Shown piece by piece: positions 27,139 to 51,915 of a stretch of DNA of 64,000 nucleotides. A program made the translations under genes and the position numbers. Origin of the DNA: Octopus vulgaris (lineage: Eukaryota). The notes beneath the pieces were generated by a model. The model ran no database searches. It worked only from the letters and a program-made list of their open reading frames with translations, and was not told the DNA's origin. How positions within the stretch are numbered: position 1 is the first letter of the stretch; each line of letters starts with the position of its first letter. The DNA lies in contig OX597817.1 in assembly GCA_951406725.2 (NCBI GenBank), forward strand, positions 33,356,001 through 33,420,000. The letters are read 5' to 3'.

Positions 27139-29392
27139 GTAAGATATTTTTTTAATATGAGTGTATGTGTGTGTATGTGTATTATTTTCTTAAATGAGGC
27201 ACAAAGACAATACATCTTGAATGGAATCAGGCATAGCAATTTAAATCAATATTGGTTCTAATGAAATGACAAATCAAAATATTCACTGATATAATCTGAT
27301 ATTCTTGAAAGTTCTAAATTAGAAACTTTAAGCCTTTTAATATTTAAACTGGTCATGTCTGACTCAAATATTCTGTATTATATTAAAATCAGTTAGGTCT
27401 AGCCTTTCACACCTTGTCCACAATATCATAACAATAAACAGTCACATCATTGAAATTCAAAACTATGAGATGATGCTCAACTAATTCAAGACATTGTGGA
27501 TAAATAAGCATTTCATTTAACAGAGTAATCTTAATGCTAAAGGGCTAAAGCATCTAAATTAGCCCATTACTGCTTAAATTAAGCTGCTCATTGTAGAATA
27601 CAGTTAGTCCTGGCTTCGACTCCCTTTTGAAAGAATTTTTTAGCCTTGTTCTTGATATCTTTGAGAAAAACATAACTATTAAGTACATAAGAATTTGTGG
27701 CCCTTTCCATAAGAAATCAATATTTGATGAGGGTTGATGAGGGTAGCTAAAACAGTAAAATAATAAACTGGCTGTTTTAGTGAATATAATTTGGTTTTAC
27801 CTATTTGGTGCTATTATTACTTTGTGCACATAAAATATGCATCAGTAATATATTAGGATTGATTCAGTTAACTACACTGCCTTCCTTACCTATCTAAATT
27901 GACCTTGTGCCCAGTCATCAGCATTAATATTTTTCTGTTTTTCCATTTTTTTTTTCAGACTGATAATATTTATATGAGTTTCAAATATTCCCAATGTATT
28001 ACATTTTATCTTACAGCAAGTGAAATTTAATAGATTTTTTAAAGGATATTTTTATATTTAATTTATCATATTTGATTGTTTTTGTTCATCACCATCCAGT
28101 GTTTTAAATCCAGGTTTTGTCCCTGTTGGCAGGGGTGGCCGGATCTACCTTAATGCCATTGCAGCTGCCCTTACACCATCTTGCCATCTTTAATCTAAAT
28201 ATTTACTTATCCCAAAAAATAAGAAACAGTAACAACTCATTTTCCTTTTAAACATTCACTGACAAATGCTTATATCATATATCTTATGATTTCAGAGCTA
28301 TTTTGCACTGTATTAAAATACTAGTGTCAAAATGTAACAGTGTATCAATATTCCTCCACCCTGGTTTTGTTATACTTCAATAAACAATCTACTTCGTATT
28401 TTTTAAAGAAATTCTTTCTTATATATAATTGTGTGTGTGTGTGGTAATAGTAGGAACATTCAATATGAACTTTTGTTTTCTTTCTCATTTGTATAACATA
28501 CCAAAGACACCTACATAGTTAAAATCTTTGATCGCTAATTGATGGCAGTTTAATGTTTTAAAGATAAGTACAGTAGCAATGTGAAACAAAATATAAATAA
28601 ATTGCTGATTTTTATATTTGCATTTATTTACAACTAAATTTTAAATAATCTAAATGACACCAGCTGCCTACCAGAGAAATGAGTGTATTTAAAAAGTGAT
28701 GCTTTGGGTACCAGATGCTGTTGAAGCTGAAATAGTCACCACTCTGAATTGCTTACTTGGGCTTAATCTTTTACCCCTTGTGACGTTTCTGACTCATAGA
28801 TTCCCCAAACATTCTTGAACACTTCCAAATCCAGTCTCTATACAGATGTCACACTACTACACACCCAAGGCTCATTCTGATCATTTAATCTCATCTCATC
28901 TTATCAACACAATCCCACTTTACAGCACCAGCTGACTACACATGTACACCACTGTTGCTGTCACTAGAATCTATTATCTGGAAACCATCAAGTATTTCAC
29001 AGCAAGCTGTGCAGCTACTCTACTGGTAAAACACCACAGCCTACAATACTTGGCAGAAAACCCCACTATTACTAATTAGGAGGATTTCTGTGTTGCTTTT
29101 TCATTTTTTGACTGACATTCCTGCCATGAACCTCCTCTTTTTTTTTCCTTTTGTAAAGGCATGATGTGCCTTTCCAGAGTCACATCAAGCAATGTGGTGT
29201 CTTTTATTTTATTTTTCTATACAGCAACTAAGAGAATTTTCAGTAAACCAATCTTGTGCAAGATGGCCATCAGGAGAATAAAAAATGCTCTTGTGAATTG
29301 CACAACCCACTGACTCTTTTTTTACTTTCCCAAATACACTTGGGAATTCTAGTCAAAAGATTTTTTATCAAATTTGGCTGATTCTTACAAAT

Positions 29393-29736
29393 CGGAGACC
29401 CCCTTCGGTCACGACACAGACCATGGGATTGCACCTAGATAGTTACCCTCCTAGACACAAGTCCAGGCGAGGTTGTTTATGGAAGACCAGCAGTCGCCCA
29501 TGCATACCAGCCTCCCCTCTCCACACCACCAGTGTTAACCAAGGGAAAGACAAAGGTCGATACAGCTTGGCACCAGTGACGTCGCAACTCATTTCTACAG
29601 CTGAGTGAACTGGAGCAACGTGAAATAAAGTGCCTTGCTCAAGAACACAACATGCAGCCCGGTCTGGGATTCGAGCTCACAACCTCACGATTGTAAGCTC
29701 GACGCTCTAACCACTGAGCCATGCGCCTTCAAATAC
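29393..29736 (-). mobile_element. tRNA-derived SINE
   Basis: A box TGGCTCAGTGG and B-box-like GAGCTCGAATCCC on the minus strand. 10-bp TSD TCTTACAAAT (29383-29392, 29737-29746). Confidence 0.85.
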
Positions 29737-30075
29737 TCTTACAAATACAGTCACACTATTCACTGCTAATTATACCTGCAGCATTTTCTACTCATCAAAT
29801 CATCACCGGCATAATCTTTCTGTCATATTATCCTTTAAAGTCATAATTTTAAGATTATTCATTATCCTAATGCAAACTCATCAATGAAACATGCAAAATA
29901 ATAATAATAGTATAAAAAAAATAATGAATAAAAATAGTTTTACTTTATTGTATACTGACAGGTAATTTTTGTATGCTCTTTTCCATTTGGTACTGCTCCT
30001 CCCTCTTGTTTTCTTTATGTTGTGTCTGATAATAAGACTAAAGCTAATGTCTTTTTCTATGTTCAACTACAACAG

Positions 30076-30090
30076 CACCAGAGGCAAAAG
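30076..30090 (+). CDS. Candidate NCX microexon, 15 nt (APEAK)
   Basis: gctaat branch-like site, pyrimidine tract, then caacAG|CACCAGAGGCAAAAG|GTAAGC. Symmetric phase 1, no stop. Confidence 0.7.
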
Positions 30091-30867
30091 GTAAGCTGTG
30101 TTCTTATGTCAGAAATTTCATTAGAAAGCTAAAAGCAATTGAAACGGGTGTCTTTTAATTATTCAAAATTTTGATTATTATTATTATTAAAACACTTCTT
30201 TCTGGTTTAGTTACCATAAATGTGAATTCATTTGAGTTTATTTTCTTATATTCAAATGACTTATTTCTAGTTGGAAAGGAAATGTAGTGAAAGAAACAGC
30301 CAAGCAATTTGATTAAATGTTTAGTGGTATTTAGTTACGTCATTTTATATTCTGAACTGTTGCATAGCATGAGTGAGACCACAGGGGTGGTTGTCCTGAG
30401 GAAAACATTCTTAAGAGCACAAAATTAACAGAACTAAAAACATATGTGAAGTAGTAATAACAAAAATAGTTTGCCCCCCTTGCAGTACTTGCCTTGCCCT
30501 GGACACTCACAGCTTGCAGTACACTGTTGGTTGTGAGTTTAGTTCCTTCCAAGATAATTAACAAATTGTATCAGTAATGCTTTAGGGTTAATTTAATCAA
30601 CTGTACTTGTGTTACTGCTAAAAACCATATCTTATAGGTGTATAGTCTACGAAATTCAACTCTAATAGATGTGTATGGATATTTACCTTTATGCACTTTT
30701 TTTATTGAGAAGATTATGCATAGCTAGGGAAAAAAAAAATCCTTTATCACTGTTAGTTGAGGGCCAATGTTTCTAATTTTTTCTCTAGAATAATTATGTC
30801 TTGTCAGAGGCAGTTAACTCTTAAAGGGGATAAACTTAAACTTTATTTTTTCTGTCACAAACATTTG

Positions 30868-31092
30868 TACTCTTTTACTTGTTTCAGTCATTTGACTGTG
30901 GCCATGCTGGAGCACCGCATTTAGTCAAGCAAATCGACCCCCAGGACTTATTCTTTGTAAGCCTAGTACTTATTCTATTGGCCTCTTTTGCCAAAGCGCT
31001 AAGTTACGGAGATGTAAACACACCAGCATAGGTTGTCAAACGATGCTGGGGGGACAAACACAGACACACAAGCATATACACACACACATACA

Positions 31093-31128
<36 letters not shown>

Positions 31129-31865
31129 CAAAATCAGAAAATGGAGAAATACATCTAAAGCATTAATCAACTATCAGAAAATACCCAATCACATACTTTA
31201 TTGAACCACTACATAAGAACATTAAGGTTAAACAAAACAGCGTACATGAATGAGTAATACAATACAATAGGTACAATCATTACAAGAGGATATAAATAAA
31301 TAAATATTATATTTATATCTATTTATATTTATTTATTTATATCCTCTTGTAATGATTGTACCTATTGTATTGTATTACTCATTCATGTACGCTGTTTTGT
31401 TTAACCTTAATGTTCTTATGTAGTGGTTCAATAAAGTATGTGATTGGGTATTATCTCATAGTTGATTAATGATTTAGATGTCTTTCTCCATTTTCTGATT
31501 TTGTATTATTAATTTATGGTAAAAATAATTTTACCTTTGCCCATGTAATACAGTAAATGAATTAATTGCATCGCAATTCTTAACATTTATGTATTAACTT
31601 TGTTGGGTAATTCACTAGCAGTATATTGGATATATGTTATCCCATGGAGGGTTGAATTTGCAACCCCTATCTCAATTTGTATATATATATATATATATAT
31701 ACGACGGGCTTCTTTCAGTTTCCATCTACCAAATCCACTCACAAGGCTTTGGTCTGCCTGAGGCTATATAGAAGACACTTGCTCAAGGTGCCATGCAGTG
31801 GGACTGAACCCAGAGCCATGTGGTTCGTAAACAAGCTACTTACCACACAGCCACTCCTATGCCTA
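30868..31865 (-). mobile_element. SINE interrupted at its (TA)n by a ~550-bp insert containing a long palindrome
   Basis: SINE halves at 30868-~31126 and ~31679-31865 match 23596-24028. Confidence 0.85.
31127..31505. repeat. Long near-perfect palindrome, ~180-bp arms
   Basis: 31127-~31306 is the reverse complement of ~31326-31505. About 4 mismatches seen, all in the outer part. Confidence 0.95.
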
Positions 31866-32394
31866 TGTACACTCAACATTCTAGTTTTCTACCTATAAAT
31901 CATCCTCCCTCTTAACAACTCTGCCAGTTTACCTCTTTTAATGAATTCAAAAGATGAATCCATTAAATTCAGAGGTTGTAACTAATCAAAGTACAAATCA
32001 TAGGCAAGTAAAGGTAAGTGGCTTGCGATTATTGTGTTGGCTTCACGATCATAGAGTTGTGAGTTCAGTTCCTAGACTGAGTGGAATGTTGTATTTTTGT
32101 GTAAGGTACTTCATTGCTCAGCTGAAAATGAGTATCAGCTGATTGCAAGTGCAGCTCTCTCCTTAGTTATCATATCTTCAATGTTCTACTGGGTTAAGAG
32201 TTGCAGCACCAAGAGGGGAGGTCTATATTTTCTATCAAGTCATATCCATTTTTGAGTGATGGCTAAGCCAGTCATAGATAATCTCAGAATCAACAAGAGT
32301 TAAGACATTTTTGTTACTATTCTGGTTGATCAATTCAATATAAATATGTTCATAATAAAAGCATATGCAGTAGTTTATAATTTCGATGACATTC

Positions 32395-32720
32395 CCTGGT
32401 CTGGTGGTACGTAAAAAAGCACTATCCGACTCGTGGCCGATGCCAGCGCCGCCTCGACTGGCTTCCATGCCGGTGGCACGTAAAATACACCAATCCGACC
32501 ATGGCCGTTGCCAGCCTCGCCTGGCACCTGTGCAGGTGGCACGTAAAAAGCACCCACTACACTCACGGAGTGGTTGGCGTTAGGAAGAGCATCCAGCTGT
32601 AGAAACATTGCCAGATAAAGACTGGAGCCTGGTGCAGCCTTCTGGCTTCCCAGATCCCCGGTCGAACCGTCCAACCCATGCTAGCATGGAGAACGGACGT
32701 TAAACGATGATGATGATGAT
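32395..32720 (+). mobile_element. SINE with (GAT)n tail
   Basis: Homologous to 14960-15407 and 58020-58330. Confidence 0.85.
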
Positions 32721-33122
32721 TTTGAAAGATTTCCCTAATTATATATTTGCATTTAAGATTTCAAATAATTTTCTAACATAAACACAATACCACAAATAGT
32801 TGTGGGGGGTGGGGAAAAAGGTATCCAGTTGACTCTGGTGCTTATTTATCCAGTACTTAGCAATCTCAGGTGGGGAAGGGCAAAGTTGACTTTGGCAGGA
32901 TTTGAATACTGAATGTAAAGTGAGGCAAATAGATATTGGTTTCAAATTTTGGTACAGGGTAGCAGGTTTGCGAGAAGGGCTAAGTCTATTAAACCAACCT
33001 CAGTGTTCAAATGGTACTTATTTTATCAACCCAAAAGGATAAAAGGCAAAGTTGAACCCAGAAAAAGCAAATAAATACTGTAAGGCATTTTGTTCAATGC
33101 TTTACATATTCTGCTAATTAAC

Positions 33123-33404
33123 AAAGTTTTCAGAAGGACTTCTAACAGCAAATGGCACAAAGGATGCACAAAGAATAGATAAGTTCATAGTGAAACCTGC
33201 CTATAACATGTCTTTGATTTCTGGCAGGTCATTTGGCTTCAGTTATGTTACTATTACTTTTGTAAAGTTTTCAGAAGGTCTTCTAACAGCAAATGGCACA
33301 AAGGATGCATAAAGGATAGATAAGTTCATAGTGAAACCTGCCTATAACATGTCTTTGATTTCTGGCAGGTCATTTGGCTTCAGTTATGTTACTATTACTT
33401 TTGT
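33123..33404. repeat. Tandem duplication, 2 x 141 bp
   Basis: 33123-33263 and 33264-33404 differ at about 3 positions. Confidence 0.95.
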
Positions 33405-33808
33405 AATAGGCATTAACTTTATACCATTACATTTCTTTACTTTATTATAGTTAGGTACACTTGTACATTTTAATAAATTAATGATAAATATATTCATATT
33501 TTTGTTTCCCTAAGCTCATGAAATTTTAGTAGCTACTTTTTCCTTCCATAATATTTTGATTTGCATCTTAAAATTTATGTTTGTTTTAAATTAAAATTTT
33601 TAAGTAAAACTCCTGAATGTAAAGGTTTTCTAGAGAAATTTCTGACAACAAAAATATCATTACGAGACTTGTGTATATTTTGTCTTTATTTTTTCACTTG
33701 TTTGCTGTGTCACTTTTCACTTCTTCCAAGGAAATGTTCCCCACCTACCACTCCTAACAGGAATGAGATTTTTTATATCTGTTTTAAAGATTAATGTTGT
33801 TATTTCAG

Positions 33809-33823
33809 TTGATGCACCAAAAG
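33809..33823 (+). CDS. Candidate NCX microexon, 15 nt (VDAPK)
   Basis: ttaatgttgttatttcAG|TTGATGCACCAAAAG|GTAAAT. Symmetric phase 1, no stop. Confidence 0.65.
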
Positions 33824-35960
33824 GTAAATAATAATAATGTAGATATGTTTCTTTGGGACCAGGGAAACTTTCTTCATTATAACAGAATTATGAAAAGGAA
33901 TTTAAAATTGCATTTTTTATCTTTAGCATCATTTAGGACATTAAATTATAGTATCAAATAAGTTTTGTAATTTGTTTTTCCAAATAGATGATTTTTAATG
34001 GTGATGATTTTCTTTTTTTTTTTTTTGTGCAGCTCTTGTTTTCTTTAACAATCTAAGAATGATGTCATTCAAAAATACAGAAAATGGAGCCTGTTAGAAA
34101 ATAATTTAAGTTTAGAAAATAACATTTTGAGTGGTTAAACTGAAGGATTTTCCATTTGTTTACAAGATATGTGGTAATCTAAGATTTGTTATTAGTGTCA
34201 ACACCATTCAAAGAAAGTTCTCTCTGTTGATAATTAAGAAATGGCAGAAATATGCCTGTAAAGAATATGGTTTATACTTTAAATCTTCACAGAAATTTCA
34301 TGTTGAGATTATTTAGAACATTTGTGTTTTGTTTAGAATCCTTTTTTGCAAAGATATTGAAGGCTACATTACTATTTTTTTTATTATCTTTAGTTTGTAT
34401 ATAACAAGGTAAAGGCAGTTACAATGATGCATATTTTCAAAATGGTCTTTCACATTAGTTCTATAACGTGTCTACTTGTTAATTATTTTTTATGCTATTT
34501 ATAACCATAGTTGACTGTTATTCAAATATATTGCATTTATTTACTATAATAATTTCAAGGTTACTTCATGAAAATGTTCGGGATGCAATTTCCATAGCTA
34601 CGATATGCTACATAGGTTTGTGGTGTGACATTAAAGTAGACAAGATTTAATTGCTATTGAGGAACTCGTGACATATAATAGTTAAATAGATTAAGTTGAA
34701 ACATCTAGAATTTTAAGAGTGTTTGAAGTTTTATCATAATTTTGTTGTTCAGTTGGTATTATGAAACCAGGCTTAAAAATAAGAAAATCTTATCAGATCT
34801 CTCACTTCTTTTGCTTTTATTTTTGCCTTTGTGTAACATTTTAGTTTTAATTCTTATTTAGTTTCTTTCATCATTGTTTCACTTTTAATTTCCTTCTAGT
34901 TTCTGTCATCAAATTACTATATCATTTGTTGACCGGGCAGTTAGAGAAATTTTTGTCTGTAGTCAGCTCCTGTGAATAGTTTGTGAGCATATGGTTTAAT
35001 GTTTCTCTCAAATACATCATTTCTCAATTATTTGTATGTAAACACTTGTACAGTTACTGAGCCTTGTGTTTAAGAAATGAGTGTAGAGGGACAACTGTTT
35101 AGATGATCATGTCATAATTTTTAGTGAATAGACAATAGTCCACTTGGTTTGTATGTATTTAGGTTGGTGTCAATATCATTTGCTCTCAATGTTTTTCATA
35201 GCTTAATTTTTTCTGATATTTTCTTTGTTGGTTAAGATATCATTTAATTTTAATGTGATTCTCTACTATTAAAATTAAAAGTACTTTTAAATATATATAA
35301 AAAAAATAGTAAGGATGTTATAGGGATAGAATCAAACATTTTAAGGAAACTGGTGCCATAAAAATAACTCCAATTGATAAGGGAACTAGGATTTGTTAGC
35401 AAAACAAAGCTTGAGTGAAAATATGCTTTGGTTGTATGGCATGAGGAATGGTTTGAAAATAAATTCTTAAATGCATGTCTAAATGGTTTATTAATTCCTG
35501 ATGTGCTGATCTGTAACAAAGCATGACTTTGAAAGGTTTATAAAAAATGTATCTGTTATTGTATTTTCATTTTGGTCTTTTAAAATGGTTAACTTCTGCA
35601 TGTTGTTGATGCATATCTACAAACAGCACTTTCTTTTTTAACTTCAACTTTATTCTTACTACAATATTTCAAAATAAGTGGTTTCATTGATCAGAAAATT
35701 TATAGATGTTATTTAGATAATCTCATTATTAATGTTAATATCCATCTTTTATTTTTTTACTTGTTTCAATCATTGGACTGTAGCCATTCTGGGGCACCAC
35801 CTTGAAGGGTTTAGTCAAACAAATTGACTCCAGTACTTATTTTTAAGTTTGGTACTAAATTCTATTGGTCTCTTTTGCTGAACCACTAGGTTACCAGGAT
35901 GTAAACAACCAACACCAATTATCAAGGGGTAGGGGGACAGACACACACATACATGTTAAC

Positions 35961-36011
<51 letters not shown>

Positions 36012-39000
36012 GAATGTGTATGTGTATAGTTATATATAAAACAGGCTTCTTTCAGTCTCCATCTAGCACTCACAAGGATTTGGTCAACTCAGGGCTATTG
36101 TAAAAGCCACTTACCCAAGGTGCCATGCAGGGGAACTGAACATAAAACCATGTGGTTTGACTCCTTACCACACAGCCATACCTGTAAACATTGTAACCAA
36201 TTGCAACAGGAAATATTATCTAAAATCTGGTTCCTGAAGTTAATCCAACTGAAACGATCTTTGGTTCCAAGAAACAAAATTTTTCATTTTAAACTGTTTG
36301 TATTTAGACTTAAATCTTCCATTGTCGCTTTATGTAAGAATTGTTTGTTGAATTCCAAACACCAGCTTAATTATCATTGAATTATTATTTTACTAATTGT
36401 TTCCCAATTTTTAAATTTTAGAATTTTTGGATGCACACAATATATTCCAATAGTAATATGATACTGAAAAGGTTAAATAACTTTGTGTCAGAGTAGTAAA
36501 AAAAAAAATCAGTTTTCTGCTTTAAAAATCAATCTAATATCGAACTATTAGAGTAGAGGTAGGAAGGAGAGAATTTGTTTTCAGACAAGATGTCATTTAC
36601 AACATAAATGTATTTTTCCAAAATGTATAAAATTTGAGAGATTACAAACCTGCTTTAGTGTTATGCATTACTATGAAAAATAAGGTCTTTAAACACTCTT
36701 TTACTAATATAAAGTATATCCTTTAAAGCAGATCTACAGAGTGTGTATTTTCTTGGTTTCCTGCAATCCAAATGATGCATTCAAATGTGACATCCCATCA
36801 GTATTTTACACTTGCTTTCCAGTTATCATTGCCCGAGTCAGTTCTTATTGAGTTGCTCTTCCTCTACATGGGCAGTGGAGTATGTCTCGCATGTTTTTGA
36901 CATGGTTTCTATTGCTAGATACCCTTTCTAACACCAATTTGAATGAACTGAAATTTTACAAGCGCAAACGTTTCAAAGTTTAAGATATAATGTCAATGAA
37001 GTCTCTAAATTCATTAGCTATAATGACTGTGCCTGCTAGAAATAGCAGTCAAACTTCACTCAAATATCATTATTAAAAAGGACAGATTGAATACTATACT
37101 TCTATATATACTGCCTGAAAAAAATTAGATTATCAAAAGCCATTCCAGCTGTGGCCATCCAGTCTAAGTACAGTTACTTGATATTCCACTTAAAGTTTGT
37201 TTTTTCAGCTTATGAACAAATTTGAAAAGGCCAGCTTTGTTGAAGAAGCTTATATTTGGTATTGGATGTAGTTTTGTCTAATTATTAGGAATAAGGCCTA
37301 AATGCTAAATAAATAGTCAACGTATTGGTCACTGTGTTGTATCTTATAGTAACAAGGCACTTTCTTTTGTTTGCTTTACTTGAGGTGGCACATTAGTGGA
37401 TTGTGTTAAAAGAAAATACCACAGTGGACTATACTTTTAATAATTCACATGCTTTTAATGTATTATTGAGTGCCAATGAAAAGAAAAACAAAAAGAAAGA
37501 AAGAAAAAACTTATGAATTTCATAACAGTTTAGTGAAATCATCAAAACTTTGAAGTGCCATCATTCAGAATTGAAAGCATGAAAATAATTATGGTATATT
37601 TCTAATTTTGATGGTTTAAATTTTCTGAAAGTTATAAGTACCTGAAGATGTTTTCTTCTTGAGAGAGACATTTGAGATTTTAGAAGTGAATGAAGCTTTG
37701 CTTATATCTTAATGGCAGATTTCTCTATCTTACAGTTCTATCTGCATTTTCCGGCTATCTCTCTCTCTATATATATATATATATTTATTTCTTTTTTATT
37801 TTGCTCAAACACTTGTAAAGCTATCTCTTCATTACTAGAGCTTTTCTCATAATTTATCACTGTTTACTGTCTCCCTAAATTGCTTCTTCTTTCAATTATT
37901 TTGTTTTTCATTTGTAGTAGAATAATTTCTTTTTATTCACTTTCTCTCTAGCTATTTGACAATGTGAACTCCATTAACTTTCCTTTCAAAACCTTTCACT
38001 AGATTTTTCTTTACATATTTCTATATTACTAACCTTTCTTTTATATGAGAGCTGAAATGTAATAGAAGAACATGGAGCATCTAATAGGGTTCAGTTTTCC
38101 TGTCAGATATCCAAAATTTATTTTTTATATTCCACGTTAAATTGGATTTCAGTTTCCTAAATATTTCTCCATTTTTCCTTCTACCTTGAGTTTTCTTTTC
38201 TAAATTTGTCTTGGAGCAAGTGGTTTGTTTTCTAACTCGTATCTAGAGTATTCAGATCAAACTATTTAAAATGAAATATTTTTTATAAGAACAGTAGTAA
38301 GGCAACCACTTAATTCTTAAAATTTCTATCATGAAGAACAATAGTATTTTACCTTAAGGATTTTTCAAAATTGTTCCTGTATTGTTTCAGCTTTTATCTA
38401 ACTGCATAGTACAATTCCTTAGCTTTGTTTTATATATATATATTTAGTTAAACTTTTTATTTTTTATTTAAGGTAATTTTTTTCCTAAACTTCTACAAGC
38501 AGTTAATATTCTTTCAATTTAACTCACTATTTGAAACAATTCTTATCACCTTTTAATATATCTTTATAAATTGATCTTTCTAACTTTTTAACAAATTCTC
38601 AAAACTTTCTCTTAGTTCAGATGACATATTTGAAATTATTCTTTGAAACCTCTGAATATGTCCATATAGCTCTTACTAAAATCATCTCTCATAAATCTAT
38701 TATCAATGCTCATTCTCAATTGTTCTTAATAGATTTTACCTGAATTTTCTTCTTAACCCTTTGCCTGTCTGTTGTATCACAAATAATACATATTTTTCTG
38801 GGATCCATGCATTATATATGATATGAATTCCTAATTTCTTTCAACCACTAGAGTAACTTGGGATTTATGTATTACTAATAACATATGAAACAAAGAATAA
38901 CTAGAAGTCTGAAAAGAAGCATGACTGTTTAGGACAAATTTATCGAAATGCTTTGGAAAGGCAAAAGGTTTAACTTCCCCAAAATTAACATTGTAGATAC

Positions 39001-39154
39001 TGAATGGATCAATATTGAAATGTATCAAGAAGAAAGTTGCTTGTTCACCTACTACAGTCAATCTTACTAAACTGTTACTCTTTCTCTGTGTACTGTTTCT
39101 CTCTTAACATTTCTGTTTCTTTTGTTTTTTTTCCTATAAATTCTGTTGCTTCAG

Positions 39155-39172
39155 ATAAACAGCTTAGCAAAG
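39155..39172 (+). CDS. Candidate NCX microexon, 18 nt (DKQLSK)
   Basis: Very long pyrimidine tract (~39070-39150), then ttgcttcAG|ATAAACAGCTTAGCAAAG|GTAAGC. TGC just upstream of the acceptor. Phase 1, no stop. Confidence 0.75.
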
Positions 39173-40475
39173 GTAAGCATTTTGCTTCTAACCATTATAG
39201 TTGAACACCAAGTTTTAGCCAGTCTATACAAAAGTGTTCTTTATCCAGATAATTTTTTTTAAAATTTTATAACTACTAATATTATTTGTTGTACAAAGCT
39301 TTTAAAAAAACTTCCATCATGTCCAGCTTGCATGCTTTTTCCAATTGTGCTTAACCGCTTTAAATATTTGTTTGTATGAGAGAGTGAGAGAAAAAAAAGG
39401 AAGAAATTATCTTCGACTCAAACTTCATGTATCATAATATAGTTCTTGCACACAGTTACACTTAATATTATGTAATTTATAGTGTGTAATTAATATGTTT
39501 GTGTGGGTGAGAGAAACATTTATAAGAATGTTGAATATTGGCTCTCTACTGTTCCTATTTTATACTACAGTAAAAATAAGATTTTAAAAAATACATTTAC
39601 ATTTGTTCAAGTACAATAACTAACTCTTATGAACTGCAAAGAGAAGCAATTATATAAAATTTTATGTTGTACCTTTCAGTTATTGTATTCTACCAAAGAA
39701 TAAGTAAGGGTCACTGCACTTATAGACTTTCTTGATAGAAAAAGGTTTAGGTGTATGATATAATGACAGTCTAGATAGCACCAGATATTTTGGTATTACA
39801 CCAGAAAACTAAGTTAAGCTTCTCATTGTGATATGATTTATCTCTTAACGTTTTTACCAATATGTGTGTCTAAGATTTTTCCATATATATTGTTAGATAG
39901 CTAGAGTACATGCATGTGCGTGCACATAGACATACACAGGTAAAATAATATCTTTCTGTTGAGTAAAGCATTTTTATTAACACTGTGATACTATAATAGC
40001 CAAGTTGGCTCAACTGGGTATATTACTGATACCTATTTCTCCCAGTCAACAATGGTTGAAAATAAACACAGGTTACCAAACTGTTATGATGAATTTTACT
40101 ACTTTTTATACCAAAAAGAAAAAAATATTTGCAGACTGATTGGGCAGTTACTTATTAATCCTAGATGTGAATTTCTTGGTAACCATTAACTGATGGAAGT
40201 TTTTATTTGTAAAACTAAATTTTCCATATTATTTACTTCTAATAATTATTCATAGTTTACAAACCACGTATTTATTTCAGTTCAAATGAATATATAATTA
40301 ATCAGAGTAAACAATTTGTTTTTATATAAATTTGTGATTCTCATGTTTAAGCATCATTTTGATGCATTTCTTCCTTATTTAAATTATGCAGAGACTTTCA
40401 CCCACTCACACACACTTACACACACATGCAATCATTTGGTAAGTGGTGTCAGTTTTTACACTTCTGATATAATGA

Positions 40476-40654
40476 TATAAGCTTAAAGCTCATAAGAAAT
40501 CACCGTGCATTGACTAAGGTAAATAGTTTAATATTGGGGCATAAAAGCCCCCAAGAGAAGTAAGTAAGGTTTCCATTGAGGGCTTATATTTCCCAATATT
40601 AGACTATTTACCTTAGTCAATGCATAGTGATTGCTTATAAGCTTTAAGCTTATA
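40476..40654. repeat. MITE-like inverted repeat, ~80-bp arms
   Basis: TATAAGCTTAAAGCT...GCATTGACTAAGGTAAATAGT is mirrored by ACTATTTACCTTAGTCAATGC...AGCTTTAAGCTTATA. Confidence 0.85.
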
Positions 40655-40676
40655 AAACACATATATATATATATAT

Positions 40677-40914
40677 ACCGGAGTAAACACATAAATGTGA
40701 AACAAGGTGGAAAAAAGTGTACTCAAATACCAGGGGTAGAGTAATATGCTTTATTTAAAAGCAACGGGAATGTGAAACTCCGAGTAACAGGTTTTGTTGA
40801 ATTTCTGCTGGTTTTAAATAAAGCATATTACTCTACCCCTGATATTTGAGTACTCTTTTTCCACTTTGTTTCACATTTATGTGTCTACTCCGGTATATAC
40901 ATATATATATACAC

Positions 40915-40964
<50 letters not shown>

Positions 40965-41031
40965 ATATGTCCGGGAACGTGAAACTCCGAGTAACAGGTT
41001 TTGTTGAATTTCTGCTGCTTTTAAATAAAGT
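40677..41031. mobile_element. Penelope-like terminal-repeat remnant: inverted pair (40677-40895) plus a partial direct copy (40971-41031), embedded in (TA)n
   Basis: ~85-bp inverted arms TACCGGAGTA...TACTCCGGTA. GGGAA(C/T)GTGAAACTCCGAGTAACAGG occurs twice. Confidence 0.6.
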
Positions 41032-43660
41032 ATATATGTATATATATAAATGCATATATATAGATAAAGGTATATATAGCTGATCTAGCAGAGAAGCCAA
41101 CGGCCAATGGATTTAGGGTCTGAAGAAAAACTGCAAACCTATATCTGTTTCAGCATCTTCTCTGCATTTTTTACACTTGTTTATGGTATATTTTTATACT
41201 TATAATGAATCTCTTCATATATATATATAATGTGATGGGTATAATCAGTTTAACTAACAGCTGAGTTGGTGATGGGCACAAGCCATTTAACTATCAGCTG
41301 AGTTATAACCTTCAACCAGACAAATTATTCTGCTTGCTTTAGCTTACCTAGCTTGAAAATGAAACACATTATCATGAACAATAGTTCAGTCGTTTATCTC
41401 TTTTAGGGCCAAGTGATATATTTTATATTAGTCATCGCATTCTCATCTCTATGTGTATCTAATTATTTTTAATTATTTTTATTTAAATGAAGGTTAATTA
41501 AACTTTGAATTATACGGACGTTAAAATAAAATGGTGAAATTTATCATTTGTGTTCTGCTGGATGGTTGACTCATCTTCACTCCTCCAAATCTCATGAAAT
41601 AAGTACCAGTAATTTATCGGGGTTGAATCAATTGACTATTACCTATAAGCCCCACTCTACAAATTTATAACTTTATTCAAAAGCCAGAAATCTAGTATAA
41701 ACATATATGGACTGCAAAATATACTAATATAAGATAGCAAATCAAATATTGAAGAATAATATATTTACAAAATATATATTTGAAGAGTAATATACAATAT
41801 TTACAAAAATAAAACAAAATGTTTACTATCATCATTGATACAAGTCCATTTGTAGCTGTGCACCTACAAACTCCCCAGGCTACACATTTTTGATTGAAAG
41901 GTTAACTAAATGTTTCATCAGATATTAAATGTTTTCTGTTGTAGTCTTGTTGTTATAACTTACTGAATATTTAAAATAAGTTAAAGGTTTGTCTACCTTA
42001 TTCTTATTTGTTGTTGTTTTTTTGATAAAGTACTTTGTTTCTAATAATCAGACTACAAACTAGTAAGTTAAAAGAAAGTGCCACAATTGAGTTTTTTAAC
42101 CATTACAATAAAGATACCTGAAAGCAAAAATCCTTACAGCAAAAATTATGCCAAAAGTGGTTAAGTGAAAATAAATATTGCAAATTTTTCTATGGCAAAA
42201 ATATCTAACATGAAAGTTAAAAATTGTTTGTCATTTCAAGAAGGTAATTGATTTACACTAACTGGTGTAATCTGCTCCTGCTGAGTCTTGCATGTCCAAC
42301 CACAGTATTGAACCAGTATAGTACACAGGCATTTCCAAATTATGCAAGTATTGCATTCAAATGCAAATTTTCCCTAACATGATTCTGTAATAAAAAGCTT
42401 ATTTTTTTCCCCATCTATTTCCATATTGAATGTAAGTTAATGACAAAATGTTTTGCATTATAGGCAAATTTAAAGGCAAAATTTTTATGACCACAAAACT
42501 TCTGCAATACCAGAAATATTGGGATACTATAAATTTGTATTTTTACATTTTGTTATAAGAACAGAATAAAATATACATGCATAATTATCGTAGATATTCA
42601 ATAAATATCAATTGATAGAAATATGATAAAAGATAGCTAATAATGATTATAAATGACTCCATTAGCAGACAAACATAAAAAAGAAAAGACAACTTGAAAC
42701 GGTAAAATAGGTATACACTGTACCTCCATGTCCAAGAACCACCCCATTTCTGTATCTGATTTGGATTAATTTTTGCTGACTCCCAGGTTTTTTGATTCCA
42801 GATTGTACCTGGTAATATTATTTTTATACATTATATAAATATTATTGTATTTTCTGATTTCTTAACAATGAAAATGCAATTTTTATTTAATTAATTGCAT
42901 CTCTGAAACAAATTTATTTTTCATCTTATATTGAAATAAACAAGAAAAAGATTTTTGGCTGTTCAAAAGTTTATGGAAATACAATCAATGATAGTGTTTT
43001 GGTAGATTCATTTAAGTGTTGGACAAAATGCCTTGCTATATTTGTTCTAGCTCATTATATCATGAGTTCATATCCTGCCAAGGTGAACGTTGAATTTAAT
43101 TTTTCTAGGGTCGATATAATTTAGTCTCTGTCTAGGGTGGTGGGACGATAGAATTATTAGAGCATTGAACAAAATATTTTGCACTGTTTGTCCTGACCCT
43201 TTTATATTTTGAGTTCAGCTTCAATGACACTAGTAATGAGTCATATCAGCCCTTGAACAATGTCACTAGAATCGAGGAAAGAAGACTTATTATATGAGTA
43301 AATGCTTGTGTCCAGGAGGGAAACTATCCCTGTGTAGATTAGATGGGCAACGCTAACCAATAGAGGCCTTATGTGAAAATAATTATACATTTACAAGATT
43401 AATTAAAGGTTACATTAGAATTAAAAGTGATGTATGTTAGCAATTGTAAACCTGTCATTGGTCAATATATTTTAAAATAAACACTTCAGCTTAGTGGCAA
43501 CACTTTTTGACTAAATGTTTAAGGTCAGACAAAAAAATTTGTTTGTTGCTATTTATATTTTGTTATAAGTTGAATATCTGTTCAGTAAACAGATATAATT
43601 TTTCAGTTCCTTAAACTAATAAATTACATTTTCAACTGTTTCTCTGTTCCTTTTAAACAG

Positions 43661-43663
43661 TAG
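43661..43663 (+). other. Candidate 3-nt microexon (adds Val) or recursive splice site
   Basis: actaat branch (43615-20), pyrimidine tract, then aaacAG|TAG|GTAAGA. Confidence 0.5.
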
Positions 43664-44442
43664 GTAAGATACATTTACAACAGAGCTTTTGAAGATTTAA
43701 TACATTTTTTTAGGTTTGATGGATGTTAAATGTTAGAAAGCAGCATTGATTTATGGTTTTTGTTTTTTAATATTTGTGTTTGTCCCTTGCAACATTTTTT
43801 TCAGCTCATTTGATAAACAGAACCAATAAACATCAAGCATGTAACTGTACCTAATTAGTTTACTGAGAAATGAAGTGTAAATGAAATTGTTTATCAATAT
43901 TGTAATGTGTTGTCTTCTAAATTTGTGTTGCTGCTGATGTTTTTAAAAGGCTTTTATTGTCGCTTATAATATCAAGGTTCTAATGTGTTAAGTTTCAACA
44001 CAGTGTAGTCAAATAATTTGTTTTTAAAAGTGAAAGATGGTAAAAGATAGAAATTCTTCCCTAACTTTTATACATTCTAAGAACTCCAAAGAACTGTAAA
44101 AATTGCTTATGTGAAATACTTCTTTTTTTTTTTTTATTATTGCTATGTGTAATCTTGTTTGTTTTAGATTATCCCCACAAGAATAAAATTGTTTCCTTCG
44201 AATATCTTTATATTTCTGCTATTGGTAGGAATATATTTTAGCAAACTAATATGTCACATTGGATTCAATCTTTACTACAAAGTAAATAAGAACTGCCAGA
44301 CAAGCTTAAATATCATCATCGTAATGAAATAATACCAGTCATTTCATTTTACTCATATTTTTAATAACTTGCCAATTCTAAACCTTTACATAACAGAAAG
44401 TTAACAACAAAAACATTTCTTTTCAAATTATTTTTATTTTAG

Positions 44443-44516
44443 GATCAAAGGGATCAGAAGAAGAACCTTTGGACAAACCTGAATCCACGGAAGAAAATGT
44501 GTTTTTACTTGCCAGA
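44443..44516 (+). CDS. NCX exon, acidic linker (GSKGSEEEPLDKPESTEENVFLLAR)
   Basis: tttttattttAG acceptor and AGA|GTAGGT donor. Its 74 nt convert phase 1 to phase 0, exactly as needed to join 27138 to 47452. Confidence 0.85.
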
Positions 44517-47451
44517 GTAGGTTTCTTCCAAATTCTTTCCTCTATTGTCTGTTTTAGTACAATAGAAATATATACAATAACAAACCTTAACACTTCAAGC
44601 TTCATGTTATTGCTTTTCTACCAAGTCATAACATGAAACTCAGTAACAAAGGGGCAAAACCTCAGCTTTAAGTGTTGTTATCATTAATTGTATGTATTGA
44701 GAACTTTTTACTTACATTTGTGTATGCATGTGTGTGTGTGTGTGTGTGTGGGAGGGGCTCTGTATAAAAGGTATCAGGTGTATGCAAGAGAAAACTATGC
44801 TAGTTTGGTTGTGTTTGGATGAGGACATCTGCATAAAGAAGTGCCAAGCTCTAATTGTGTAGGGTACCTGTGAAATGGGTAGACCCAGGAAACATGGGAT
44901 GAAGTGATGAGAAAGGATTTTTGGATGCTGGGCCTCACTGAGGAAATGACAAGGGACCGGGAGATGTGGCAATTTGCTTTACTTAATAAATTTGCTTTAC
45001 TTTGGTGTTAGGAAGGTCATCCAGCTGTAGAAACACTGCCAGATTAGACTGGAGCCTGGTGCAGCCTCCTGGCTTCCCAGATCCTGGTCGAACCGTCCAA
45101 CCTGTGCTAGCATGGAAAACAGACATTAAACGATGATGATGATGAATAAGACATATCAAACTAAGTAAAATTGCTGTCTTCCACACATTCAGGCTTGTTC
45201 TTTCAGGAGCTGGTGCCACTTAAAAAGCACCTGTGCTGGTACTGCATTAGTGCACCTGTGCCAGTGGCTCGTAAAAAGCCCTCAACACACTCTGTTAAGT
45301 GGTTAGCATTAGGAAAAGCATCCAGCCATAGAAACCATTCCACAACAAACAGTTGGAGTTTGGACAGCTCCTTGCTAACCATTCCAGGTCAAACTGTCCG
45401 ACCCATGCCAGCATGGAGAGCAGATGTTAAACATTGATGATAATATATCCATTTAGTGATGATTTGGAAGAAAGAGTACTCAATACCATAACAGAGATTA
45501 ATATTTCTATTTTGGTTGAGTCAGTCTCTTGCTACTCTGAGTATGTGTGTGTTATAAATTGCATTTAATTTATGAATCATCATGTTTTTGCAATAACCTC
45601 CCTCATTGTATGCTTTCTTTATATATATCAGTGAGTTTCTCACAGTTCAGTTAATCTGTTGATCTGTTAAATAAGGAACTTATTAAAGAGGAGTAACTAC
45701 AAAACATAAGATAATGTGAAGGCAAGTGACCTAGTGGTTAAGGTGTTAGGCTCATGATCATTAAGTCATGGGTTTCATTCCTGGACTGGGTGGTATATTG
45801 CTTCCCTGGGCAAAGCAATTCATTTTATGTTACTCCCATTCACTCGACTGGAAATTAGCTCTCAGTTGAGAGCTGATGCAGCTCTCCTTTCAGCTGTCCC
45901 ATCCCCGGGTCAAAGATAGGAGGGTTTGAAGGTATATGTATCTACTTGCAACCCTATGTGTACCTCAAACAATTAGCAAATTTTGGGAAGTAATAGTGAT
46001 TGAAATGCATAGAGTGAACACCTGGCTCTTTTGTAAAATAAACTATGGTTGAATTTAAGTATTTAAGCCTGTTAATTATTTGAAGAAGAAAAAATTATTT
46101 CAATTTAATGCTATCAAGCAGCTAAGCCACTACAAAATAATTACGATGTTTTTTGATACCAGCCCTTCTGAGATTGCCTCTTTGTCATCTTTTTTTTTTT
46201 ATATAAAACTATCCATTTTTAAAGGTATTTATATCTCTCCGACTTCACAAGTTTGTTTCAAAAACCTGCTTAATAATTAAAAGAATTAGTTACTTTTTTT
46301 TTTTTTAAATCCCATCAATTTCTTGATTATCTCCAGATTTAATCGGAACATGTAGATGGCAACTTTTGTTAGAAATATGGTGAGGAATGGTTTAAGCCAA
46401 ATTCTAAAATTTGAAAAAAATTTATCAGAAGAAGAGTTATTAGTAAGAATAAACATGCAATGAAATTAAAACAAAATATTTTCTAAGCAACATTGTCATA
46501 AGGTTAATATGCTGATCCCATAAATGATTGAGTTAAAATTTTGTTACAGTTACTATAATGCAAACTTAGACAGTTTCTGATTCTCTGTAGTCTAACTATT
46601 GAAAAGACAAATACCACAGTAAAATTTATAAGGACCCACTTATAATAATGTATGAAAATGTTAATATGTATGAGATCAGACAAAATAAAATATAATAGAA
46701 AAGTAGTATATTCTAAAATAGAAGTTTAAAATTTTGCTTTTGAATTAGTTTTGAAAAAAAAAAAAATGAAGAAATTAGTGCATTTAGTAAAATATCTTTT
46801 ACATTTACTTCTACATTAAATTGGTTTCAAGAATATTACTTAAGAAAAGAGTTTTTTATAAAATTAATAACCGAAATTTTAAAATCTAAATAGGAACATT
46901 ATGTCAAAGAACCAGAAGCATCCCTGGGTAGATTGGTTGGTATCAAAACAGTTAAAGAAAAAGGAAGTAAAAAGCTTGCTGATATCTCGTACTCTCTTTC
47001 TTGATATTTTATACTTTCAACCAGTAGCATTTCCCCCTTTTTGCATCATTTGATGCTCCTTTTACCATGTTGATGTAGGTTGGATAGTCCAATAGAAACC
47101 AACAAGCCACAAGGCTACACTGATCTCCAGTACCTGCTCTGGCATGGTTTCTATAGCTGGATACTCTTCCTAATGCCAGTCATTTTACAGAGTGTGCTGT
47201 GTGCTTTAAATGTGGCACCAGCACTAGTGAGGTTATCAAGTAGTCACAAGACAAGAGCCCTAAACTGTGTGGGGTTTAGTATTGAAGGATGTGAAAGATG
47301 TAACATAATTACAGCTCATGCTCAAACCAGTTGTTTCATTTGCATAAATTGGATAACATTTTGTTGTTCAATCCTGTTTCTTAACTCATTCATGTTCAAA
47401 CAACTATTTCCACTGGTTGTATAGTTTTATCTGTTTGTTGAATTTTTATAG

Positions 47452-47619
47452 GACCTTGCTCGTACACAAGATATTACTCAAACAGATGCTGGCCGTTTAG
47501 CTGCAGCAACCCTTGCTGAACGTCAGAGCCATGGGAGAGGATGGTATCGTATCAATGCCAATCGAAGTATGACTGGTGGTCAGAAACTTACACCAATAGT
47601 TATGGAAGCTTTCAAAGAG
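47452..47619 (+). CDS. NCX exon, helical segment before CBD1
   Basis: DLARTQD...LAERQSHGRGWYRINANRSMTGGQKLTP...FKE resembles the NCX KSRAFYRIQATRLMTG motif. tttatAG acceptor and GAG|GTAACC donor. 168 nt, phase 0. Confidence 0.92.
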
Positions 47620-49300
47620 GTAACCTAGATAACTAACTTGATGTCTCTTATTTACTCCTTGTTAAATGACTTCAGTAATCAAATTTTCTTTTCAAAACTT
47701 AGTGCAGCATGCAATGTGCCAGCATGGCCACTGCCAACTAGTTGAAACCAGTTAAAATAACGTCATTACAAGAGAAAAAAAATTTATGAAAACTGCTTAG
47801 TATGAATTGTGCCAGAAATTACCGTTTCAAAATTTTGCCATTGTTTGATGTTAAACATGTTTTATATATGTTTTTTTTTTATTTTGCTTTTCAAGAAAAG
47901 AATTTAAATAATTCCACAATTTTTATAATATTGGTTTCTTAAGAATGGAGTCAATGTTTGTAGGAAAGTAATGTAGTTGACTCAGTTAATTCCAGAGCAT
48001 TGTGTGTATACTTTTGTTTTTGCTTTTCTTTAGAAGGATGGAAGAGAAATTTAATAGTGCAATTCATATTCAGAATAGAGCTGGAGAAAACTAAATGCTG
48101 CAAAGCAGTTCATATCAACTAATTCTGCCAATGATAACTGCATTTTCATTTTTCCATTATTGAAGTTTGCAGAATATATTGCAGAAACTGTTGAAAATCT
48201 TTACAGTATTTAATTTTATCCACTTATATTCTGGGATCAAATCCTGCTTATTTTCCCTTTATTTTGCTGGGCTAGTAAGATAAATTTCAGTTATATATGT
48301 TGTTTGTAATATTACTGATTATATTATTAAAACTGACTTTGTTACTAAGAAACCAATATTGACCACATTAGCTTGTGCTTATGGAAACTGCTGCATGCTT
48401 GTTTTTATTTTAAATGAATGTAGAAAGTGGAGGGGATAGTTTTTTTGTTTTTTTTTACTAATGGAATTCGAGAATTTTAAATATATTTTAACTGGCTTGT
48501 TAAATGTCACAGGTAAGCTTTCAATAAGCCAAGAATATAAACTAGTTTCAGTTCTGAGCAATTATTTCACTTTGCTCATTATTTCAATAACTCTGAGAAA
48601 CACCATACAATCTTATTTCCCTTCAGTTTTAGATATGCCTTTGAATATGTATTTATGTGAGAAATCAGTGAATAATGATTTAGCAATCACTTAGTGTATG
48701 TAGACTTTTCCCTTCTCTTGTCACAAAAGAGAAACTAGGAGTAACATTAAATGAATGAGTTGAATATTATTTTCAATTATGTTCACTTTTAGATGTAATG
48801 TAGTTTTGCCATTTAGTTTCCCATCAGTAGGAGAACTAAATGTTTATCACTTGATTTCTTTGGGTGACATGCACCTCCTTTAGGATTTTTAAGAAAGCAA
48901 GAAATACAGATTGTTGAACTCAAGTATTCTTAAAGCATTTATAATGTAAATGAAATGAGTGAACTACAACTAGGAATAAAAGCTGGGAACTTATCTGACT
49001 ATGTAAGAATATCTTTATAATTTCCAGAGTGGAGAAATTACAAATGAATTTTATTTAATTCTCTTCTTTAAAACAGATCCAATACTAATCTTTTATTTCT
49101 CATTGAGGATTATTTAAACATTTTTTACTATCTTTGTAGTCTGTTGCCCTTTCATTTTTTATCATATTGCTCAATCATACAATTATGTAATTTCTGTATG
49201 TGTGCATGTATATATAATATAATTTCTCTCAGGTTCCATAAATGTATGTATATACTATATTTTACGTAGTTTTTTCTTTTTTTCTCTTTTTTGTTTTCAG

Positions 49301-49321
49301 GCTGGTAGTAGATATAGGGAA
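49301..49321 (+). CDS. Candidate NCX microexon, 21 nt (AGSRYRE)
   Basis: ~30-nt T-rich tract, then ttttcAG|GCTGGTAGTAGATATAGGGAA|GTATGT. Symmetric phase 0, no stop. Confidence 0.6.
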
Positions 49322-51891
49322 GTATGTTTTACATTTTAGATTTATAAAGAAATGTTTTCCAATCTAAAATATTTATTTTATTTTGAATTTGTTTTCAGTA
49401 ATTTAATGAATTTTTACAATATTGTTGTTATCAAGTCTACATTGGTTATATTTCTGTTTATTTGTATATTTTCAGTTTTGTTTAATCTGAAAGTTATTTT
49501 TCAGAGATTTTAACATATTTCTTACTAATAACTATTAATAGAGGGGGTTGAGATCTAACAACTAAAGTTAATATTTTAGGCTTTCACTGGAACTTCATTC
49601 TATAGAAAGGACAAGCTTCAACTTATATAAACCATTTTTATTTGGTCTTGAATGTTTAAGCATTTTCTTTTCTTTTCTTTTTTTTACTTTTACAATTTGA
49701 ACAGAGAATGAGGAGAAGAGCTCAAGATCTCTGCAGATTTTCCCCAAAGTGGTATGGATGATATAGTTAATGTTCAGGTTGTACATATGCTACAAAAATA
49801 TAGGTGTATAGAGAATTGTTCTGAATGCTTGCACAAAATGGTCTCTGCAAAAGGCACCTGAAAACTGAGTGCTGGTTGTTAGACATACTTCATAGAGAAT
49901 ATTAGAACTACTACTAGTAGCTGATAGTTTGTAGCATGACAATTCCAAAAATACTTTACACTAAAACATTGGTATAAGGCGAACAGGGGGTGAGATGAAA
50001 TCTAGCTCATTGACAAGAATTGGTAACATGGTAACTGTGCTTTCTTTTATTGGCAGATTGGCAATAACTAATATTCCTCAGTCAATCATCATCCTGGAAT
50101 GGGTTAAAGGTAGCTTTAGCATGAGACATAATGCCACATTGCATAAAAAAAGAAGTTGGCTTAATGCTTCTTTTCTGATGTTTCTTACGAAGTCAATTTT
50201 GTCCAAAGTGATGAGATGTTTCATCATGAACTTCTGTTTTGTAATAACTGCCAGATATGTGGAATGGAGCAATATCATTAAAACTGAAAATTACAAAAAT
50301 TATATTATATCCAACACATTTTTTAACAAGGCTTATGAACCAAGATATCTGATGTTTTGTATATCTTACTGAGAGCAGAATGTTATATATATATCTTACT
50401 CTCATAACTGTTCATTGGGCTCAAAATAAAGATATGGAAATCAGACTATAATGATGCTTATGATGTAGGAGACTTGCAGCTAGGTTAAGGCCACAACTCA
50501 TTAGGTATCTGTTACCATGACATCCTATAAGTTGTTTATAGAACTTTCTTATTAACATCTTACTTTGATAATAATCTTTTGGTTTCTCTATTGAATTGAG
50601 ACTCACTTAATATTTATATTAAATGTTTGTTATAGTTAATCTGTTCTGAGCTCATGCTTCTAAAACATAAGCTTAAATAATTCATTTGTTTCCTTTACAA
50701 TTAATGTGAATATCTAAAACAACAGTACACGTTTGATGATAAATAGTTCAGAAATAGTAATCTACTGGAACTCCATTATTTACAACGACGAGGGCTCTGA
50801 TTGGTCTGGTGAATGGAACAGTCTGCTTGTGAAATTTAACATGCAAATGGCTGAGCACTCCACAGACATCTTCACCCTTAATGTAGATCTCAGGAAGATT
50901 CAGCAAGACTCAGAATGTGACAAGGTTGGTCACATTCTACCAATTCTATTGATTTACAAAGTAAATTACAGGTACCACACACTTTTGCTAGCTGAGTGGA
51001 CTGTAGCAACATGAAATAAAGTATCTTGCTCAAGGGCACTATGTACAATTGGGAATTGAACTCACAACCTTATGATTGTGAGCAGAATACCCTAACCACC
51101 TTCAGAAGTAATTATATATTTTCTGATAATGAGCTAAAAGTTTTTTTTATGTTTAAAAACACACATACACACACACAAGACTATAGATTAGAAGAGTTCT
51201 AAGATAGAGTAAAATAGTACAATGTTTGTTTCACCTTTAATGAACGTGAAAATTAAGTAATTTACCTATTAGAATATAATTTTAACACAATGTTATAACT
51301 GTTAATTCCAACATTAGAATTGAATCGTTTTTTAATATTTTCAGTATCACTTTATTCTAATCAGTTTAATCACCAATTGTCATCAGCTTATTTTTACATG
51401 GTTCTGTACTTTGTATCATTATTGGACTCACTTGTCACTTTGACAAACTGAAGATTCAACAGGACACAGCTTTGCAGTGTTCTTTGATGCATTGGCATGT
51501 CATCTCGTGTGGGAATTCAGACCTACCTAGGATTTGCAGATCTGTTGTAGTAGCGGTCTCCACCATTTGGGGACTGATTGGATCCAACTCGATACTGGGG
51601 TCTATTATTTTCATTAGTGTCGATCCTGGCTGCTTCAAAGTTGGAGATGACTTGGTAGCAAGAGCTTTCCTAGAAGGCTCTTTCCAGTATCATAAATATC
51701 ATCTAATTAGTATCATACTACAATAGTGACAAATTATCTTTGATTTTTAAACATATAAGTAACTCTGTGTTTGTGATGTCCTTTATTGCAGAATAATGCA
51801 TGGCAATCTGTTCTTTCAAATTTATAAATTGAATATTATGCAGGATGCTTCACATTGATATCTTGGTTTTCTTATCTTTTATTAAATGCAG

Positions 51892-51915
51892 ATTCAGGAT
51901 GAGCTTTCAGCCAAG
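51892..51915 (+). CDS. Candidate NCX microexon, 24 nt (IQDELSAK), with an alternative in-frame acceptor giving 18 nt
   Basis: cttttattaaatgcAG|ATTCAG|GATGAGCTTTCAGCCAAG|GTAAGC. Phase 0, no stop. Confidence 0.72.

Follow-up and report, generated by a model that had tools for sequence, protein, structure and literature searches.

Alternatively spliced microexons in an octopus exchanger gene

This locus raises the question of whether the regulatory loop of an octopus Na+/Ca2+ exchanger (NCX) is varied by a set of very small exons, how many protein forms these would yield and what they might do. The window, i.e., the whole stretch of DNA analyzed, covers 64,000 nucleotides (nt) of Octopus vulgaris (assembly GCA_951406725.2, contig OX597817.1, positions 33,356,001 to 33,420,000 of the forward strand). 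Within it, a first-pass annotation had described six AG..GT cassettes, and all six were found at the positions, lengths and frames it gave. Its proposal that a cephalopod NCX gene is alternatively spliced upstream of the first Ca2+-binding domain (CBD1), and not in CBD2, is borne out by gene models together with transcript contigs.

The cassettes lie in two introns of the gene, and all its features in the window are on the plus strand. Site 1 is the phase-1 intron between exons E2 (26712..27138) and E3 (44443..44516) and holds m1 to m4, while site 2 is the phase-0 intron following E4 (47452..47619). The gene models comprised 25 full-length Octopus proteins (7 from O. vulgaris, 8 from O. sinensis and 10 from O. 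bimaculoides; one partial protein and one cluster member absent from the listing were left out). The contigs came from public runs, none of them recorded as RNA; their spliced joints show that they stem from RNA, and they reveal presence rather than absence or level. At site 1, m1 (30076..30090, 15 nt, APEAK) occurs in 15 models and is spliced as E2>m1>E3 in run X1; m2 (33809..33823, 15 nt, VDAPK), with weak splice sites, occurs in four models, all from O. sinensis, and in none of the contigs examined; m3 (39155..39172, 18 nt, DKQLSK) occurs in 13 and is spliced as E2>m3>E3 in run X16 (organism B). At site 2, m5 (49301..49321, 21 nt, AGSRYRE) is present in four models, as AGSRHRK in 4 of the 10 from O. 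bimaculoides, and is spliced as E4>m5>m6 in X16, and m6 (51892..51915, 24 nt, IQDELSAK) occurs in 18 models and is spliced as E4>m6>E5 in X1. A seventh cassette, m7 (L001:3800-3814, 15 nt, LDNPQ), missed by the first-pass annotation, lies 3.8 kb beyond the window, has the strongest donor of the set and occurs in 14 models. With sizes of 3 to 27 nt, canonical splice sites and a preserved frame, these exons have the properties of alternative microexons.

A splice-site scan, based on generic weights and on a cut-off of at least 11 that was set after the candidates had been seen, returned six candidates of 3 to 30 nt in the host introns (43,002 bases), all six being multiples of three, and six in control sequence (antisense strands, flanks and other introns; 184,303 bases), one of them a multiple of three. 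The good donors and pyrimidine tracts attributed to the cassettes were present in most of them, but VDAPK has a low score (4.7) and AGSRYRE a weak donor (1.2); at 4.7, m2 is indistinguishable from background on sequence alone. Weaker candidates with lengths divisible by three at 34394 (stop in phase), 39680, 39901, L001:5984 and L001:6787 are backed by none of the models and were left uncounted. A low-stringency tblastn search gave only noise besides the exons already known. A 141-bp tandem duplication (97% match) is found 400 bases upstream of m2, within 33123-33406.

The smallest candidate, m4 (43661..43663, 3 nt, Val, score 12.1), consists of a NAGNAG acceptor with a donor immediately after it. 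Splice sites can also act recursively with zero length, and m4 could be a 3-nt valine exon, such a recursive site, or chance; we see about even odds that it is real. Two further 3-nt patterns of similar score exist in the scanned 124 kb (both strands). It was seen in none of the 25 models and in none of the five runs reading the junction upstream of E3, an absence limited by the fact that 3-nt exons are readily lost by aligners. In mantis shrimp, differences of 1 to 3 residues between models are seen at site 1. A position of m4 inside a repeat was rejected on its single genome match, which is weak evidence.

Number of forms and possible regulation

Within each of the three Octopus species, differences between the models are confined to sites 1 and 2. 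Inclusion and skipping are both documented for m1, m3, m5 and m6 in contigs, and for m2 and m7 in gene models only. Every cassette is skipped in contigs of run X12, and E2 is joined straight to E3 in X3 and X9; after E4, X9 has two contigs and a mixed consensus (agreement 0.68), which would fit m6 plus direct joining to E5. A first contig survey (18 kb, likeness 90), dominated by intronic repeats, yielded only the skip junction, with no cover on E2 in X7. Public gene models already include these exons, so the expectation that annotation would miss them was mistaken: five of the original six (APEAK, VDAPK, DKQLSK, AGSRYRE and IQDELSAK) appear in Octopus models, three of them in O. vulgaris, VDAPK in O. 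sinensis and the AGSRHRK version in O. bimaculoides. Searches for further isoforms added little, as a loop-focused homolog search returned 14 proteins, of which the only two new ones were not Octopus isoforms, and a search for shorter proteins found none among 590 candidates.

The estimate of 16 x 6 = 96 variants, which assumed independent cassettes, is not upheld. Neither the 3-nt exon nor the shorter m6 of 18 nt, which a second AG at 51898 would produce, occurs in any of the 25 models, and VDAPK, AGSR(Y/H)R and LDNPQ never occur without a partner: m2 is found only alongside m1 (4/4), m5 only alongside m6 (4/4) and m7 only alongside m6 (14/14). The models contain six of the eight states possible for m1 to m3 at site 1 and four of the eight possible for m5 to m7 at site 2, in 18 observed pairs. 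This suggests that inclusion is nested or hierarchical, with m2 needing m1, and m5 and m7 needing m6, and that there are about 20 to 25 forms rather than 96.

As regards control, a UGC lies near the acceptor of m3 (at -8) and of m7 (at -10); m1, m2, m4 and m5 are without one, and in m6 it only overlaps the acceptor. Moreover, m3 has a 97-nt AG-free zone and m7 a GCATG 5 nt into its downstream intron. A UGC near the 3' splice site and a long AG exclusion zone are listed as enhancer of microexons (eMIC) features in the available part of 10.1101/2021.02.24.432780. The octopus gene is similar to the Srrm234/SRRM3/4 eMIC neural program in having frame-preserving exons of 3 to 27 nt in an ion-transport gene, in the UGC of m3 and m7, and in the AG-free zone of m3, but it differs in that only two of the seven cassettes have the UGC in their tract. 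The genome contains a match to SRRM_C (G000:C25:37317492-37317626, locus L010; 32.6 bits against a cut-off of 27, covering only profile positions 13-55 of 67), likely to be the Srrm234 gene. Judged by these motifs, neural control of m3 and m7 is plausible.

The same two sites vary in other lineages

The cassette peptides are largely kept between O. vulgaris and O. bimaculoides, with APEAK and LDNPQ identical and the others differing slightly (DKQLSK/DKQLGK, IQDELSAK/IRDDLSAK, AGSRYRE/AGSRHRK). LDNPQ (in P0142 and P0145) and an m6-like 8-mer are also present in Logan proteins that branch sister to the octopods and are likely from squid or cuttlefish. This conservation between Octopus species, and that of LDNPQ in the sister clade, implies selection. 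As a separate observation, m6 (LYGDLSIK in the sister clade) is similar to the start of E5 (LHEDLK in octopus, LYDDLK in the sister clade), a weak hint that m6 may have originated by copying of the E5 acceptor.

In a first set of isoforms (Logan proteins, three Haliotis, Ruditapes, two Mya sets, two Patella, Crassostrea, Biomphalaria, Gigantopelta, Babylonia and Macrobrachium), site 1 varies in all 14 groups and site 2 in 8 of them. A second set, of invertebrates, including two sea urchins and a mantis shrimp and repeating Macrobrachium from the first, shows variation at site 1 in 7/9 groups and at site 2 in 2/9. Sea urchins vary at one of the two sites, and the spider and scallop pairs have no site-1 variation. 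At site 2, Ruditapes and Mya show a 6-residue loss from shared sequence, perhaps an alternative acceptor. No internal isoform difference within CBD1 or CBD2 was printed in either set (terminal gaps were not printed). The idea of a separately evolved cephalopod system therefore finds no support, since the same positions vary in other molluscs, in crustaceans and in sea urchins; what is specific to a lineage is most, though not all, of the exon sequences. In 16/16 groups, the codons of the residues that follow the constant exon begin with the same base, as expected of a phase-1 intron, and in 14 of these groups at least two different residues are found.

On octopus contig C5, a paralog of the host gene carries a phase-1 intron at the position corresponding to site 1. 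Its homologous 57-kb intron contains nine sense candidates, one of which is a multiple of three, i.e., no array. There is one 21-nt in-frame candidate, AEAPTHP (G000:C5, ~50942770-50942790; position 27770 of L011-L018), at chance level. Also, a Haliotis paralog has a 7-residue insert at the site-1 position. We infer that both introns are ancestral, small cassettes having been gained and replaced in them repeatedly.

This pattern fits what has been called type I convergence, a recurrent gain of tissue-specific exons in which different short exons arise at equivalent positions of orthologues across bilaterians, as in spg/DOCK and syd (10.64898/2026.09.05.749416, in the part seen); the octopus gene differs in that its cassettes, up to three or four per site, cluster at two hotspots of a single gene. 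The main text of that study has no match to SLC8A, NCX or Calx. Literature searches, with most subscription papers and any supplements that may list the O. bimaculoides exons beyond their reach, found no published description of these exons or of splicing in this lineage. We advance only tentatively a broader scenario in which an NCX lineage of ancient origin, shared by echinoderms, arthropods, annelids and molluscs and lacking both XIP and the CBD2 splice segment, has instead been regulated since the bilaterian ancestor through two "nursery" introns flanking a two-helix bundle, with different microexons recruited in each lineage. The octopus would be among the densest cases, with seven cassettes including a 3-nt exon doubling as a recursive site. 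If true, it would represent a second, undescribed splice-based allosteric control of NCX and give a function to the unresolved linker ahead of CBD1. In addition, the gene illustrates clearly how short exons have arisen time after time at the same two positions in different phyla.

An NCX lineage without the XIP motif

The lineage of the host gene was examined with a quickly built tree of 61 rows, chosen for their similarity to E2, with no bootstrap, a thin classical side, and NCX-SQ1 and CALX not included. The host protein falls in a clade of 55 rows made up of proteins from echinoderms, arthropods, annelids and molluscs (Shimodaira-Hasegawa-like approximate likelihood ratio test support of 99), apart from fish NCX2b and from an octopus paralog on contig C6. 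The segment after transmembrane helix 5 (TM5) reads RKCCIEDKSTGIYEIAM in the host versus RRLLFYKYMGKRYRADKRHG in fish NCX2b and RKLLNKFISKKYRASKQKG in the C6 paralog, and no basic exchanger inhibitory peptide (XIP) sequence follows TM5 in the host gene. The aligned clade members are likewise without the basic XIP and the CBD2 insert, and keep the transport motifs and most of the acidic residues of CBD1. Nor was cassette splicing of CBD2 found: the 25 Octopus models have one distinct C-terminal part per species, with the CBD2 insert absent. By its sequence, the host gene is part of an NCX lineage of invertebrates that has no XIP motif and is distinct from classical NCX. Toward its end, E2 encodes DRKCC (~27083-27097), with a Cys pair right after TM5 in place of the XIP start, and most aligned clade members have a Cys near there; speculatively, this could be a palmitoylation site.

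NCX-SQ1 and Drosophila CALX are of the same family as the host, and NCX-SQ1 is likewise a cephalopod exchanger. According to the part of PMC2217150 available, an XIP region is present in NCX-SQ1, and nine clones of it included no splice variants. Identity of the host with the NCX-SQ1 lineage was rejected because of the missing XIP and the different locus. The C6 paralog (G000:C6:76924327 region, L007), at a locus different from the host gene, groups with fish NCX2b and has an XIP-like segment and one long first exon, with an uninterrupted open reading frame (ORF) of 585 amino acids (aa) from TM1 into CBD2; it is presumably the NCX-SQ1 orthologue. A fourth NCX-like gene, very divergent and on a long branch, is located in the G000:C12:35154839 region (L009). 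In the portion of PMC2408596 seen, divergent invertebrate NCX-like genes are treated as lineage-specific, and most of them are predicted to be non-functional, and the excerpted PMC4232491 calls C. elegans NCX-3 a more diversified clade. Tree and motifs would argue against the non-functional verdict of PMC2408596 for this lineage, to whose members attention is drawn here as an apparently unstudied group without XIP.

Position in the protein and possible roles

In the AlphaFold model of P0133 (mean predicted local distance difference test [pLDDT] of 68.9), almost all of residues 224-372 score below 50. Site 1 (239-249) is modeled as a coil between TM5 and helices 265-315, and site 2 (331-350) extends a low-confidence helix ahead of CBD1, which starts at ~380. 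The two sites thus flank a two-helix region between TM5 and CBD1. In the section of PMC11021524 at hand, the linker from TM5 to CBD1, including the two-helix bundle, is described as unresolved in the cryo-electron microscopy structure of NCX1 and its role as open.

On balance, we favor the reading that the spliced microexons form a likely tissue-regulated, partly nested adjuster of the length and charge of the tether between the Ca2+ sensors and the transport domain. Six microexons in the two introns add 5 to 16 residues after TM5 and 8 to 20 before CBD1, and this extension may modestly alter Ca2+ activation, turnover or partner binding, with splicing presumably regulated by tissue. The tether reading is supported by the different inclusion patterns of different runs, by the confinement of variation to two sites, which vary in other phyla too and flank the predicted helical pair, and by the conserved peptides, as well as by simulations that propose a Ca2+-dependent membrane anchoring of the homologous YRI helix (PMC11021524, in the same section). 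The gene in any case supplies a natural series of linker variants, the public models of the host protein spanning 824 to 855 residues, for asking whether the tether matters.

Several points weigh against it. The public runs carry no tissue label, so regulation cannot be read from them, models and contigs leave site 1 unphased relative to site 2, and the 25 models behind the nested pattern are not independent. In the comparison between species, isoforms were aligned within clusters picked for having multiple members, the homology of the introns rests on protein junctions, and the inserts are mostly unrelated in sequence between lineages. The net charges of the cassettes range only from -1 to +1. 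Finally, human NCX1 with a deletion of 341-365, the stretch before CBD1 that aligns with site 2, had Ca2+ and Na+ responses similar to those of the wild type (PMC10550945, in the text available); structure 8sgi appears to be this construct.

That functional deletion, with its wild type-like regulation, is also an argument for the nearest competitor, which we consider unlikely though ahead of the other two: that the linker, being disordered, tolerates the gain and loss of frame-preserving microexons with no functional change, so that the cassettes are spliced but near-neutral. The low pLDDT of the linker and the turnover of inserts between lineages would be expected in such a case, and the gene would then carry an ordinary annotated microexon set. 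Near-neutral cassettes do not readily account for peptides kept across Octopus species, for the presence of LDNPQ in the sister clade too, or for dominant isoforms that differ between runs. Variation is, furthermore, restricted to two sites, and the other introns scanned are without an equal-scoring candidate divisible by three.

Less likely still, the cassettes could be short motifs for binding, trafficking or phosphorylation (e.g., LDNPQ, or the basic, Ser-containing AGSRYRE) and not act through the mechanics of the tether. The LDNPQ sequence is unchanged across octopods and the sister clade, AGSR-x-R of m5 is kept between species, and m6 and m7 lengthen the low-confidence helix 326-345 in the model; yet the inserts of other lineages have no motif in common, and no partner was identified. 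As to an independent, cephalopod-specific neural eMIC combinatorial code of about 96 to 128 variants including the 3-nt exon, the 18 distinct pairs, the UGC near the m3 and m7 acceptors, the SRRM_C match and the precedent for very small exons in mantis shrimp speak for it, but it is very improbable given the absence of m4 and the short m6 from all models, the reduced sets of states, the four cassettes without a near UGC and the variation of the same two sites outside cephalopods.

Compared with vertebrate NCX1 (SLC8A1), where cassettes A-F also vary the cytosolic loop by small exons in combinations (PMC2217150 and PMC10550945, in part), the octopus gene differs in where its loop varies: the vertebrate cassettes are in CBD2, whereas the octopus variation lies upstream of CBD1 in a protein in which the CBD2 insert and the basic XIP are absent.

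Host gene and other features of the window

The host gene extends from 23184 to ~21 kb beyond the window end (tblastn). Its first coding exon, E1 (23184..23471), runs from Met to the TM1 loop and was located by tblastn of P0123 at 100% identity. E2, with spliced-contig cover, encodes the alpha-1 repeat to TM5 plus the post-TM5 segment and ends in phase 1; it matches Pfam Na_Ca_ex (E 6.6e-16) and is 100% identical to proteins annotated as sodium/calcium exchanger 3 in O. vulgaris and O. sinensis. E3 (GSKGSEEE...LLAR) is a constitutive 74-nt exon with joints 27138>44443 and, in 4/4 runs, 44516>47452. E4, which ends in phase 0, encodes helices homologous to the NCX two-helix/YRI region by alignment to NCX1; its Pfam match to Na_Ca_ex_C is weak (E 0.0024, under the cut-off). 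The remainder of the site-2 intron (51916..64000) continues past the window, where it holds m7, up to the start of E5 at L001:9318.

In alignment to NCX1, the motifs GTSAPE, IVGSAAFN, GTSMPDT and GSNSVN correspond to GSSAPE, IVGSAAFN, GTSVPDT and GSNAVN, and we take the aligned alpha-repeat residues to have ion-binding roles. The protein thus has the two alpha-repeat transport halves with conserved ion-binding motifs that define SLC8, and also the tandem Calx-beta domains CBD1-CBD2 in the TM5-TM6 loop, with PF03160 on the Octopus matches. The CBD region matches the two-domain Na/Ca exchange protein structures 3rb7/3rb5 (E 1e-26), and beta-sandwiches occupy residues 380-602 in the AlphaFold model of P0133.

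Apart from the exons, the E4-E5 intron contains a near-intact mariner-type transposase ORF of 291 aa (54051-54926, plus strand; Pfam Transposase_1, E 1.7e-26), and a long TATA/TATG microsatellite (63133-63924) lies at the end of the window.

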